DNA from: a virus | Length of the DNA stretch: 39,456 nt | Strand: one strand, 5' to 3' | Virus genome (UHGV): UHGV-0205415 | Part shown: positions 4,060-33,403 of the stretch, piece by piece | Numbering within the stretch: position 1 is the first letter of the stretch | Layout: the number at the start of each line of letters is the position of its first letter | Program-made: the position numbers and the translations under genes | Notes under the pieces: model-generated | Databases searched by the model: none | Seen by the model: only the letters and a program-made list of their open reading frames with translations | What the model was told of the DNA's origin: nothing

Positions 4060-6057
4060 TTATATTGCAGATATTATAAAACATAATAATTCTTCATATC
4101 TTATTCCATATCGCTCACCCCCTTCTATAGATATTCTGCGTTCTCCAGTATCATATTCAATTAATTTTTCATCACCGGATTCTTCATCAAAAATTATCTT
4201 TTTAGCAATTACTGGTTCGTATTCAGTTTCCCATTTATCATAGCAAAAAAGACCATAGTCGTTTGCATCAAGCCCTTCTTCAGCAAATGCTTTATATACA
4301 TCTTGGGCAATAATGCCAAAATGTAATCTAGCATTTTCTCCTTTTTCAATTACTGAATCTATAAATCTAAAACAACAAACCAAACCCTTTATTTTATATG
4401 CAACACGTCTCTCTGCATCAGTAATCGGTCTTTTATCAGTCTTAACTCGACCATCCGATGTGTTAATCGTTGAAGTGCCAGCAAATATTGTATTCCACCT
4501 TCTGGATGCTGAACCGCAATTTCTAGCGTTATCTGTTGCTGGTTGTACCGACGCATCAAAACGAGCATAATTATTCTCATCAGAAACAGGTCCCATCAAT
4601 CCACTCAAAAAAGGGAGCCCGCTCTGATTAGCAATTATTAATTGGTTGTCACCTGAAGAAATTGCCGAACCGGCATTGGTTCCGATAAATATATTACCTG
4701 TTCCAGAGCTTAACGATCTACCAGATCTATATCCAAGCATTACATTGTTACTTGCCGAACCAATAGAATTAAGTGAGTCGGCTCCTACTGCGACATTATT
4801 CATCCCTGTAGATGTGCCTGTATAAGGGTTATCTATAGAAGAAATCCCTCTTCCTGATCCGCTACCAATATATGTATTGTTATCTCCATTTGTAATCTCC
4901 CTTCCGGATGCATTGCCTATAAATGTGTTATTATTTAGAATGTTATAAGACAACCTTTTGCCTGATTGGTCTGTAACAATTCCAGCTCGCATTCCAGCCG
5001 CTCGACCTATTGCAACATTACCACTACCAGTATGAAGTTGTTGTAATGCACTTGATCCTACTGCAACATTAAAATTTCCTTCTTTATTTTCATTTAGGGC
5101 ATCGCGCCCAATTCCAATTATGTTACTAGCTGTGGTTGATTTTTTGCACGCATTCACACCAATTGCTACAATCTCAGTGCCAGTGCATGGCGATGTATCT
5201 GTGAGATCGTCTTGAAGGGTATCACCTGATAATACACCTGTCCCAATTGCTGTAATGTTATTGCCCGTGCTAATGTTTCTTCCTGCACTTGGTCCAATCG
5301 CAACAACTTGCCCGGATATATCATTTCCATTATATATCTTGCCAGCATCAAAACCAAAAAAAACATTTCCAATTGTCTGAGCAGGATTTGCAAATGGAAT
5401 AGGTTCGTCTCCTTTACTTTGTATTATTTTACCAGGGCCATAAAATTTTCCATTAATATAGTTCTCAATTAAATAAGTACCTTGTGGAACATAAACACCG
5501 TCAGGTGAAACTGAAGATGCATAGGAAAATATATGTGTTGCGTCAATATTGCCATTAACAATGTCGCTAACATCTTCATGTTTTACAAAATCAAGAATAC
5601 TAATATTCTCTGCATTTTTATCATGCTGTGTTCGTTTTGTAGAATTAATTAAAGGTTGTTTTACTGTGATTAATGAATCACCAAGCCCATCATCTGAACT
5701 TAAAAGTTCTTGCCTTAACTGATCCGGGTCATACTTCAGCACATTAGGAAAATAAAACTGCTGCGCACCATATGCATCATAAACAGCCATAGAATGGCCT
5801 TGCACAGTTACGAACTTGGCAATCTGTCCGTTATATACCGGATATCCGGCAGCGTTAATGATTATTGGTTGCGAAACAGGAATGTGAGAACCGTCTTCGT
5901 TCTCTACATAAACCTGAATCTGGTTTTCAGGATTTACCGGGTCAGTGTCAATTTTACCGATATAAATTTTGCCATTGGCTACGGCTTTAAAAGAACGCGC
6001 CATAGTGAAGAGTTGCGAAGGCATACTCACTACAACATTGGCTGTAATGTCTGTCAT
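4060..6057 (-). CDS. tailspike protein: P22 gp9-like head-binding N-terminus, repeat-rich central domain, C-terminal S74-type intramolecular chaperone domain
   Basis: N-terminus [11 protein letters not shown]...[11 protein letters not shown]...VTVQGHSMA...LKYDPDQ matches P22 tailspike head-binding domain (recalled); C-terminus resembles autoproteolytic chaperone of endosialidase/tail fibers. Confidence 0.85.
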
Positions 6058-6189: not shown

Positions 6190-6447
6190 ATGATGTACAG
6201 CAAATACGATGAGGCGCAGTTCCACTTGAGGCTTACGCACGAGTTGCACGCTAAGATTAAGCAGCGTGCAAAAATGAATAACAGGTCTATCAATTCCGAA
6301 ATTGTGGCTACGATGGAAGAATCACTCTCCAAACCATCACCTGTAAGCGGGTATCGTGATGAAGAAGAGAGGCTGGCCTCATTAATCTCGGAACGAGTAA
6401 AAGAAGTTGCGGCTGATATCCTTAGAAAAGAAAAAACCCGCGATTAA
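6190..6447 (+). CDS. mnt: Mnt-like ribbon-helix-helix repressor
   Basis: Only the C-terminal 86 codons of track ORF 5794..6447; NNRSINSEIV and SKPSPVSGYR motifs match P22 Mnt (recalled); GGTGAGG RBS before ATG. Confidence 0.75.
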   Translation: MMYSKYDEAQFHLRLTHELHAKIKQRAKMNNRSINSEIVATMEESLSKPSPVSGYRDEEERLASLISERVKEVAADILRKEKTRD

Positions 6448-6683: not shown

Positions 6684-7411
6684 TATGCAACATTACTCCC
6701 ATGAATCAGGTGTTGTAGTGCTTTAACACCTTCCGCATTGTAGCGGAATGCTTCCACCTGTTTGCTGGAATGCGCAGATTTATCCAGGAAGAACTTACCG
6801 TACTGCTCAGTTTTGAGGTTGTTTGCGTTAGCAATGCGACCAATCTTGTTGGCCGTTACTCCAAGCTGCTCTGCAACCTCCCCTGCTGAGTAGTAATGCT
6901 CTTCTATTGCTGGAAGAGGTATTGCATTAAAACCAACGATCGGGTTTATTATGCTTGCTGCCGCAGTCTGCTTTGCTTCCGGCGCAAGATTTGGCATCAA
7001 ATCGAACAGATTGGTAACAGCTTCAACCGTCATTTTCAATGTTCGCGCCTGGCGATACTCAACAAGTCCACTCGACGATTTACCGCTTTTAATGTGCGCT
7101 TCTTGCATACTTTCAAGTTGGTCTACAAGTGAGCGGCGAACAGCTTTAGATTCACGAGCAGCCACTCGAAGGGCTTGCTTAATTGACATAACAACTTTTT
7201 CAGAAGTTGTCTTGTTTGATTTTTGAACTACGAAAATTTCGTAGTGCTCACCTTCAAGTTCATCCTTAATGCGTGCAATAAAGTCGTTATTGCGGACTTC
7301 TTTTTCCCCGCACTGTCTACGAGCATGATTGACCATCTCTAACAGGTACTGGCTATCAATGGTTTTATCCGTGACAACGGATCCGATGTTTGCTACATTC
7401 TTAAAAGTCAT
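6683..7411 (-). CDS. Rha/antirepressor-family regulatory protein (tentative)
   Basis: ORF 6683..7462; ATG at 7411 with AAGGA RBS; domain resemblance to phage Rha/KilA-C antirepressors (recalled, moderate). Confidence 0.5.
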   Translation of the reverse strand: MTFKNVANIGSVVTDKTIDSQYLLEMVNHARRQCGEKEVRNNDFIARIKDELEGEHYEIFVVQKSNKTTSEKVVMSIKQALRVAARESKAVRRSLVDQLESMQEAHIKSGKSSSGLVEYRQARTLKMTVEAVTNLFDLMPNLAPEAKQTAAASIINPIVGFNAIPLPAIEEHYYSAGEVAEQLGVTANKIGRIANANNLKTEQYGKFFLDKSAHSSKQVEAFRYNAEGVKALQHLIHGSNVA

Positions 7412-7449
7412 TAGGCATTCCTTATGTGGTAGTAAGGGTGTGACATAGG

Positions 7450-7480
7450 CCGCCAGCAGCACACTGGCGGTTTTCTTTTT
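7450..7480 (+). terminator. plus-strand intrinsic terminator-like hairpin inside the minus-strand antirepressor operon
   Basis: CCGCCAG-cagcaca-CTGGCGG followed by TTTTCTTTTT. Confidence 0.3.
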
Positions 7481-7499
7481 GCGCCGTCCGGCGCACCAA

Positions 7500-8138
7500 T
7501 CAATGAATCCATTCCTCGCCGCGAAGTTTTGCCAGCATTGGCTGAGCGTTCTTTACGACAAAATTGTTGGTATCAAGATTCTTCATTTCACGAAGAAGTG
7601 ATTTCTTGGTTTCTTCTGACATGTAGCGAGTCTCATATGCAATATCGTAAATCCTTCCAGAAAGCTCAGAACCAATTTGCTTCATTCCTGGGTAGATGTG
7701 TTTGCACATTTGTTGACTCTTCTCCATCCACAATTGTAAGTAGCAGAGATTAACCAGCTCTTCGTCAGTAAACTGTTTTGCAATCGGTGAGCATTCTGCC
7801 TGCCGATCCAAAATATCCAGCACCCAGCGGCGGAACTCTTTGGCCTTGGGCGTAGAAGCAAACATCGCCACCAAGTGAGCGCCTCGGAGCGAGTAAACTC
7901 TGACCGATTTGTTACGTAAGCTATTGTTTATCCCGTTGACCTTCATATTGAGGGTCAATGACATTGAGTCGGAAAACTCGTCAGCATTACGGGCATAAAT
8001 TTGGCTGATGGCATCAGTTTTTTTATAGCCGAGAGCCTTAGCTAGTTCGGTGGAGGTAAACCAGATAGACCCACCCTCTGTTACAGGGTTAAAGGTGAAT
8101 CCTTGGAAGTTATAATCTGATTTTGCTACAATGTTCAT
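7500..8138 (-). CDS. ant: antirepressor with BRO-N-like domain
   Basis: ORF 7500..8222; ATG at 8138 with AAGGAAA RBS; BRO-N-like segment FTSTELAKALGY...VRVYSLRGAHLVAMF. Confidence 0.7.
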   Translation of the reverse strand: MNIVAKSDYNFQGFTFNPVTEGGSIWFTSTELAKALGYKKTDAISQIYARNADEFSDSMSLTLNMKVNGINNSLRNKSVRVYSLRGAHLVAMFASTPKAKEFRRWVLDILDRQAECSPIAKQFTDEELVNLCYLQLWMEKSQQMCKHIYPGMKQIGSELSGRIYDIAYETRYMSEETKKSLLREMKNLDTNNFVVKNAQPMLAKLRGEEWIH

Positions 8139-8214
8139 GTTAGTTTCCTTGCATACGGTTACTGACATAGAGGCCCGGTTTGTGTTCGCGCACTGCCGGG
8201 CTTCACTATTTTTA
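8123..8214 (+). ncRNA. candidate sar-like antisense RNA covering the ant ribosome-binding site
   Basis: Perfect TATAAT at 8111..8116 on plus strand inside ant 5' end; GCCCGG...CCGGGC hairpin plus T-run in arc-ant intergenic region; analogy to P22 sar RNA. Confidence 0.3.
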
Positions 8215-8385
8215 CTGGGCATTAACTCTTTCCTCTCTCAGGCTTTTAGCCAGTCGCTGCACAATCGCAGAGTTGATAGAAATTCCATCCATTTCAGCAA
8301 CACGTCTAATCTCCTCCTTCATTCGCGCTGGCAAACGAAGCTGGAAACTTTGACTTTTACGACCTGTGTAAAGCACATCTTTCAT
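8212..8385 (-). CDS. arc: Arc-like ribbon-helix-helix repressor
   Basis: ORF 8212..8412; ATG at 8385 with GGAGG RBS; FQLRLPARMKEEIRRVAE...ISINSAIVQRL resembles P22 Arc. Confidence 0.7.
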   Translation of the reverse strand: MKDVLYTGRKSQSFQLRLPARMKEEIRRVAEMDGISINSAIVQRLAKSLREERVNAQ

Positions 8386-8413
8386 AAGTAATCCCCTCCA
8401 CAATGATACCAAC

Positions 8414-8455
8414 TTGGTTCTAGAACCAATTTAACACCATTTATTTTGATGTCAA
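8414..8455 (-). promoter_or_regulatory. Pant-like promoter (-35 TTGACA, 16-nt spacer, -10 TAAATT) overlapped by 16-bp perfect palindrome TTGGTTCTAGAACCAA (operator candidate)
   Basis: Read directly from sequence; sits in divergent region between arc and the second mnt-like gene. Confidence 0.5.
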
Positions 8456-8497
8456 GTTGGTGCTATTGTTTAGCGAACATCTTTACGTTGAGGTCAT

Positions 8498-33094: not shown

Positions 33095-33168
33095 ACTCCT
33101 GTGGATTGATCCAGTCTTTCTACATCAGGCCTCGAAGAATTCGCCGTTCTTCGGGGCTTTTTCTTTTG
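33095..33168 (+). ncRNA. candidate oop-like antisense RNA ending in a terminator inside the cII 3' end
   Basis: Hairpin CTCGAAGAA-ttcgccg-TTCTTCGGG followed by CTTTTTTCTTTT on plus strand at 33131..33168; analogous to lambda oop. Confidence 0.3.
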
Positions 33169-33403
33169 TCAGCATTCTGGCTACTTTCTTAGCCAGTTCC
33201 GCCAACTCCTCGTCTTCAACACCCCATTCAAGAACAGCCAGAAGCATTCCCATTTTTGGGATGAAGCTGTCTTTCCATCGCGAAATTTGCGATTCATTAA
33301 TCCCTAACGCGTCGGCAACCTTTCGCTGACCACGTACAGCAATTCGATTCAGGATGTTGCTTGTAATTGCATTCGCTTTCTTGCGAGTACTTGTAAGTTG
33401 CAT
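33125..33403 (-). CDS. cII: CII-like transcriptional activator
   Basis: SQISRWK...[10 protein letters not shown] motif as in lambda CII. Confidence 0.8.

Follow-up and report, generated by a model that had tools for sequence, protein, structure and literature searches.

A predicted sar-like antisense RNA between arc and ant in the immI-type region of a P22-like phage genome

The arc-ant operon and its surroundings

The stretch of DNA analysed here, the 39,456 nucleotides of the virus genome UHGV-0205415 (hereafter the window), carries on its minus strand an operon in which an arc-like gene is followed by ant and by two more open reading frames (Table 1). According to the Pfam matches and the ORF list, the Arc-family gene lies directly upstream of the antirepressor gene and is accompanied by a divergent ribbon-helix-helix gene. 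According to the ORF list and the annotation of Escherichia phage JEP4, the module is situated between the DNA-injection genes and the tailspike gene. Its gene content and order mark the region as an inverted immI-type antirepressor module from a P22-like phage, with predicted repressor functions. The late genes, arc and ant all lie on the minus strand of the window. JEP4, which belongs to the genus Lederbergvirus, is 98.4% identical to the window over positions 7400-8218, and its annotation gives the same genes and the same limits of ant; no small RNA is given there at the locus that we describe below as sar-like.

Two Arc/Mnt-like ribbon-helix-helix genes, both on the plus strand, stand on either side of the arc-ant operon. 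The gene at 8498-8881 occupies the divergent mnt position, and the gene at 6199-6447 adjoins the tailspike gene and is convergent with the operon. The C-terminal motif of the product of the latter gene, SKPSPVSGYRDEEERLA, resembles P22 Mnt by eye. The region 8408-8462 contains a perfect palindrome of 16 bp, TTGGTTCTAGAACCAA (8415-8430), that shares positions with the -10 element of the candidate Pant promoter, and CCAACTTGG/CCAACTTGAC motifs are repeated around its -35 element; a similar sequence occurs in Klebsiella phage KP12 (locus L123, 2806-2860). The palindrome and the repeated motifs are candidate Arc/Mnt operators. In addition, the interval between ant and the next minus-strand gene contains a strong intrinsic-terminator-like site at 7447-7473 (+), with a 10-bp stem and then TCTTTTT, that points against the operon. 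Plus-strand transcription from the Mnt-like gene at 6199-6447 might end at this site.

Table 1. Features of the arc-ant region in the window, with the corresponding entries of the P22 record.
Feature	Position	Strand	Basis
Tailspike gene	4060-6057	-	gene order
ant, target gene, 212-aa antirepressor with Bro-N and P22_AR_C	7500-8138	-	ORF list, Pfam
Candidate -35 TTGGAA, 18-nt spacer, in ant codons 11-12	8103-8108	+	promoter scan; tentative assignment
TATAAT of the preliminary description	8111-8116	+	complement of ant codons Asp8-Tyr9-Asn10; within the homologous promoter's spacer
Extended -10 TGcTACAAT, homologue of P22 Psar TGcTATACT	8124-8132	+	alignment with annotated P22 Psar
Complement of the ant ATG	8136-8138	+	sequence
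Predicted sar-like antisense RNA, about 71-75 nt	8139-8213	+	5' end G8139 by homology; 3' end in the T-run
Hairpin I, 8139-8144 / 8161-8166	8139-8166	+	folds; loop is anti-Shine-Dalgarno UUUCCUU (8144-8150)
ant Shine-Dalgarno AAGGA	8150-8146	-	7 nt upstream of ATG; complement of 8146-8150
Hairpin II, terminator stem 8170-8179 / 8195-8204, inner stem 8182-8185 / 8190-8193	8170-8204	+	folds
Terminator tail ACUAUUUUU, overlapping the arc stop codon	8205-8213	+	sequence
arc stop codon	8212-8214	-	sequence
arc-like ribbon-helix-helix repressor gene, first in the arc-ant operon	8212-8385	-	ORF list; Pfam Arc, E=9e-12
Candidate Pant promoter: TTGACA, 16-nt spacer, TAAATT, with TG	8428-8455	-	promoter scan, 10/12 matches
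Divergent ribbon-helix-helix gene, position of P22 mnt	8498-8881	+	ORF list, Pfam Arc-like
P22: end of the arc CDS	15022		P22 record
P22: sar RNA	15021-15090		P22 record
P22: sar terminator	15021-15058		P22 record
P22: start of the ant CDS	15091		P22 record
P22: sar promoter	15097-15125		P22 record; 6-34 nt inside ant

The promoter of the predicted antisense RNA

A preliminary description of this locus placed the promoter of an antisense RNA within the 5' part of ant, at TATAAT, which matches the -10 consensus perfectly. The hexamer is indeed present on the plus strand, which is the correct strand, 22 nt inside ant, and it is scarce, with four copies on each strand in 39 kb. A working promoter at this position would produce an RNA of about 90 nt that starts near 8123 and covers the ribosome-binding site, the start codon and the first five codons of ant; when folded, this longer RNA keeps both of the hairpins described below. 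However, TATAAT lacks a TG extension, its best -35 match at any position reaches 3/6 in our own reading, and the promoter scan made no call at 8111-8116. The window contains eight copies of TATAAT, versus 16.7 expected from shuffles; thus, the hexamer alone is no more frequent than chance.

A different element is indicated by the alignment with the annotated P22 Psar, which pairs P22 AAATTGCTATACTATTCATGTTGGTTT with ATTTTGCTACAATGTTCATGTTAGTTT of the window. The homologue of the P22 promoter is an extended -10 element, in which the TG occupies 8124-8125 and the hexamer TACAAT occupies 8127-8132, and the homologous start is G8139. The promoter scan reported the same element as TTGGAA-18-TACAAT with TG at 8103-8132. 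An extended -10 promoter has little need of a -35 element, and TTGGAA can therefore be assigned this role only tentatively.

The two candidate elements differ in their conservation. For this comparison, we used 41 unique upstream sequences from viral relatives, which had been gathered with a search pattern that did not include the promoter. The hexamer at -12 to -7, counted from the G after CAT, has A at its second position and T at its sixth (TAnAnT-like) in 40 of the 41 sequences. Its commonest forms are TACAAT (19 sequences) and TATACT (13), and TG occurs at -15/-14 in 29/41. This -10 element is kept across Ant proteins with differing N-termini, including MNIVAKSD, MNSIAILE, MKSIANKE, MNSVQNNE and MTSIAI. 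By comparison, the position of TATAAT is -10-like in only 11 of the 41 sequences. The hexamer TATAAT itself is found only in the closest relatives of the window and depends on Tyr9 being encoded by TAT; the commonest sister variant, TAC, changes it to TGTAAT, and TAAGAT, TGAGAT and other forms also occur within the same ant family. The P22 sequence at this position is CTGCTT. Codon usage in 25 unique sequences of the same Bro-N ant family gives a similar picture: the two third-codon positions inside the -10 hexamer TACAAT are invariant, versus variation at 11 of the 12 remaining third-codon positions, and four of the six positions of the TATAAT hexamer vary.

Because TATAAT is located in the spacer of the conserved promoter, simultaneous occupancy of both is impossible. 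On these comparisons, the working promoter is probably the extended -10 element at 8124-8132, which lies 16 bases downstream of the hexamer first proposed and whose activity is predicted. TATAAT, as read from the codons, is a by-product of Asp-Tyr-Asn. It may serve as a minor extra start in this phage; however, with a variable sequence in relatives, no TG and no good -35 match, it is unlikely to be the main promoter. If active, the extended -10 element would represent a clear case of a promoter that lies within a gene and limits the choice of the first codons in unrelated proteins.

In phage SPN3UB, ant and its embedded promoter are 95% identical to those of the window, and the similarity ends at about the ant ATG (locus L147, 2192, versus window 8140). 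Beyond this point, the sar body and arc of SPN3UB are a different variant. The antisense promoter and the antisense RNA body are therefore on opposite sides of a mosaic joint.

Structure, strand and relatives of the predicted RNA

An RNA that starts at G8139, one base before the ant ATG, would cover the ribosome-binding site and the leader of ant but not the start codon, as in P22. The proposal of an antisense RNA over the ribosome-binding site and start codon can thus be retained for the former, and the start codon falls outside the predicted RNA. The GCCCGG...CCGGGC hairpin and T-run previously pointed out in the arc-ant spacer are also present, and these two hexamers (8173-8178 and 8196-8201) form the core of a longer stem, hairpin II, which encloses an inner 4-bp stem. 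The TTTTT of the tail (8209-8213) overlaps the arc stop codon. The fold of 8139-8214 (+) has a free energy of -33.3 kcal/mol (z = -6.2), and none of 200 shuffles was as stable. Hairpin II is a candidate intrinsic terminator with a strong GC-rich stem and a U5 run that is set off from this stem by 4 nt; owing to this gap, the terminator scan made no call for hairpin II. The annotated tail of the P22 sar terminator, AACUUUA, is weaker than that of the window.

The two hairpins are supported by compensatory changes. RNAalifold on 54 unique RNAs yielded both hairpins, with pairing in 99.7% of cells and 7 of 18 pairs changed on both sides; within hairpin II, compensatory changes affect 7/12 pairs. 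Hairpin I is invariant in the viral set by construction, as the search pattern fixed it, and the -10 element is likewise invariant by construction in the set from bacterial genomes, where it formed part of the pattern. In the genome set, hairpin I was free to vary, and single-sequence folds recover it in 24 of 25 elements, with the Tatumella element (L141) as the sole exception. The stems of hairpin I in this set include GUCGAU/AUCGAU, GUCAA/UUGAC and GUCUA/UAGAC. In alignment A4, which was guided by the model and comprises 50 elements including the genome relatives, 96.8% of cells pair and 13/18 pairs show compensatory changes, including all six pairs of hairpin I, versus 38-50% pairing in controls with the partners slid by one to three columns. 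Fitting to the model favours the structure in this alignment; the independent single-sequence folds agree with it. A MAFFT alignment of 77 unique RNAs (A3) misaligned the 3' arm of hairpin I in members of the GUCGAUA type, and A4 was used for the pair counts instead.

An inverted repeat is present in both strands, and its function could in principle lie in the minus-strand arc-ant mRNA, where a hairpin between the two genes might cause attenuation, provide a processing site or stabilise the message, with no antisense RNA being produced. The repeat does occur in that mRNA, in which a weaker version of the structure folds. However, the reverse complement of the predicted RNA reaches only -19.5 kcal/mol (z = -2.0) and has no U-run after the stem, and many conserved G-U pairs correspond to A-C mismatches in the mRNA. 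All 77 unique family members fold more stably on the plus strand (means of -29.8 versus -19.1 kcal/mol), and a T-rich tail follows the stem on the sar strand in 40/77 relatives, compared with 6/77 on the opposite strand. The structure is therefore selected on the plus strand. Moreover, a hairpin acting in the mRNA leaves the conserved -10 element inside ant unexplained. We consider this explanation highly unlikely, and we rejected the more specific possibility of a minus-strand terminator or attenuator because of the strand asymmetry and the lack of a U-run on the minus strand. An antisense RNA that begins at TATAAT is somewhat likelier than this explanation; given the conservation of the downstream promoter, we regard such an RNA as improbable.

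Relatives of the predicted RNA were gathered mostly with sequence patterns. The hairpin I pattern recovered at least 120 viral contigs, and a pattern combining the -10 element, the ATG and the terminator stem recovered 23 stretches in representative genomes. The genome set includes Hafnia, Xenorhabdus, Photorhabdus, Pectobacterium, Citrobacter, Klebsiella, Pluralibacter, Tatumella, Rouxiella and other genera, and Klebsiella phage KP12 was found as a relative by BLAST. In SPN3UB and Oslo, two phages classified outside Lederbergvirus, model searches also located a sar-like element in the arc-ant interval; Oslo has a tape measure gene. Across 77 unique RNAs, identity to the window RNA forms a continuum from 57% to 100%, with P22 at 68%. 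At 95% identity or more, the variant of the window occurs in 71 of 5,426 complete E. coli genomes, and no noncoding RNA is annotated under the match in 12 E. coli genomes among the matches listed. E. coli strain E7476 carries a prophage of this type, with 99.5% identity to window positions 8060-8260.

The Rfam model of sar, RF00262, scores 97.8 bits on the P22 control but gave no match in the whole window at its gathering threshold (43 bits) or in 7950-8550 at E<=10. It passes 3 of 20 related loci and misses the other 17 as well as the window. Thus, formal membership in RF00262 does not apply to the RNA described here, and the RF00262 model is evidently too narrow. The only Rfam near-match in the window, SymR (21.8 bits, E=0.11), is at chance level, and we rejected it as anything other than an analogy. 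A non-circular test was provided by covariance model R2, which was built from 27 relatives, P22 sar included, that are each at most 72% identical to the window RNA. This model finds 8139-8214 (+) over its full length with 46.3 bits (E=3.8e-7), and this is its only significant match in the 39-kb window; model R1 gives the window RNA 83.1 bits. It might be argued that a promoter-like hexamer and a hairpin have come together here by chance and lack any function, in keeping with the chance-level frequency of TATAAT. However, the conservation, the covariation and the model matches extend across Salmonella, Escherichia, Klebsiella, Citrobacter, Xenorhabdus, Photorhabdus and other genera, and we consider a chance origin extremely improbable.

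Both sar models also produced a second, weak, full-length match at 33101-33176 (+), with about 21-22 bits and E of about 0.02. This site, which has a hairpin and a U-run, begins immediately beyond the 3' end of the gene 33125-33403 (-) and extends into that end in antisense orientation; Rfam gave no match at 33101-33176. The gene may be read as cII/C1-like from its sequence. We rejected this site as a second sar, since an RNA antisense to the 3' end of a cII-like gene occupies the position of the lambda/P22 OOP RNA, and it looks like an OOP-type RNA.

In several of the related loci, sar-like elements occur in groups of two to four within a few kb (L057, 2158-5766; L128, 2295-4066; and L130, L137, L138 and L140 (Xenorhabdus)), which suggests tandem antirepressor modules that each have their own antisense RNA. 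In a Photorhabdus asymbiotica locus (L145), the Rfam sok antitoxin RNA is found at 4080-4228 (+) with 102 bits, about 2 kb from the sar-like element.

Proposed mechanism and comparison with known systems

In P22, Ant inactivates the prophage repressor, Pant is repressed by Arc and Mnt, and base pairing of sar with the ant leader prevents the translation of Ant, also from late-operon read-through transcripts (PMC2629481, PMC11016777, PMC12111858, PMC13397905). The primary descriptions of P22 sar are those of Liao et al. (1987), Wu et al. (1987) and Schaefer & McClure (1997), as cited in PMC2629481.

The likeness to P22 sar that the preliminary description had suggested is borne out by the homology, the covarying structure and the strand asymmetry. 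Because of these lines of evidence, together with the geometry of the locus and the conserved promoter, we interpret the interval as a diverged homologue of P22 sar that starts at about G8139 from TGcTACAAT and likely blocks Ant translation, and we assign this interpretation a probability of roughly 85%; transcription, pairing and repression are carried over from P22. RNA polymerase would start from the extended -10 element within ant codons 3-5, one base upstream of the ant ATG, transcribe the arc-ant spacer on the plus strand and stop at the GC-rich hairpin and U-run (8170-8213) that overlap the arc stop codon. The resulting RNA of about 71-75 nt would fold into two hairpins and offer its anti-Shine-Dalgarno sequence in the loop of hairpin I. 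Its full complementarity to the ant leader would allow it to pair with arc-ant mRNA, whether this originates from Pant or from read-through of the late operon, and the pairing would occlude the ribosome-binding site and turn off Ant synthesis after an early burst. The late genes, arc and ant share the minus strand of the window, and the read-through logic of P22 would therefore apply here as well.

A sar-like RNA is the expected regulator of an immI-type antirepressor, and no concept in phage biology is changed by our interpretation. This kind of element is well known; by sequence, the present variant goes with a Bro-N/P22_AR_C antirepressor and is outside the Rfam model. The practical value lies in the narrowness of RF00262, in a variant that is without annotation in JEP4 and in the 12 E. 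coli matches listed, and in the example of a predicted promoter embedded in a gene. A wider and more doubtful reading, which we put forward as speculation, is that a large and diverse sar superfamily has been missed by the current Rfam and RefSeq annotation. Such a superfamily would span P22-like podoviruses, SPN3UB, Oslo and prophages of Xenorhabdus, Photorhabdus, Hafnia, Pectobacterium and other genera, sometimes with several copies per locus. The variants of hairpin I could then represent antisense specificity classes, in which the variable stem and loop would let each immI module silence its own ant, and only that ant, in mixed infections. The same reading would imply that the embedded promoter forces unrelated antirepressors to start with Met-x-(Ser/Ile/Thr)-(Ile/Val)-Ala.

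Among known systems, lambda OOP RNA and the cis-antisense RNAs of plasmids and toxin-antitoxin modules, such as SymR, are also short and cis-encoded, combine a 5' recognition hairpin with a 3' terminator hairpin and act on an overlapping mRNA. However, OOP and SymR have no sequence relationship to the window RNA, and their targets differ (the 3' end of cII and the 5' end of symE, respectively); these RNAs are analogues only. The closest comparison is with P22 sar. Sar has already been noted in other P22-like phages, e.g., epsilon34 and UAB_Phi20. Unlike P22 sar, the window RNA is missed by the Rfam model, and the identity between the two RNAs is about 68%. The terminator stem of the window has another sequence and an internal loop, whereas that of P22 is a continuous 14-bp stem, and the window RNA is about 5 nt longer with a better U-run. 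The target also differs, as the Ant protein of the window belongs to another family (212 aa with Bro-N and P22_AR_C, compared with the 300-aa P22 Ant). Nevertheless, the two RNAs have the motifs CATGTTrGTTT, TTACTGACA and GGGCTTCA in common. Both lie between arc and ant, are antisense to the ant leader and ribosome-binding site, and have a 5' end 1 nt before the ant ATG, which in the window is placed by homology. Both are preceded by an extended -10 promoter that reads outward from ant codons 3-5, and the 3' end of both overlaps the arc stop codon. Moreover, both are predicted to form two hairpins, of which the first presents an anti-Shine-Dalgarno sequence in its loop and the second is the terminator.
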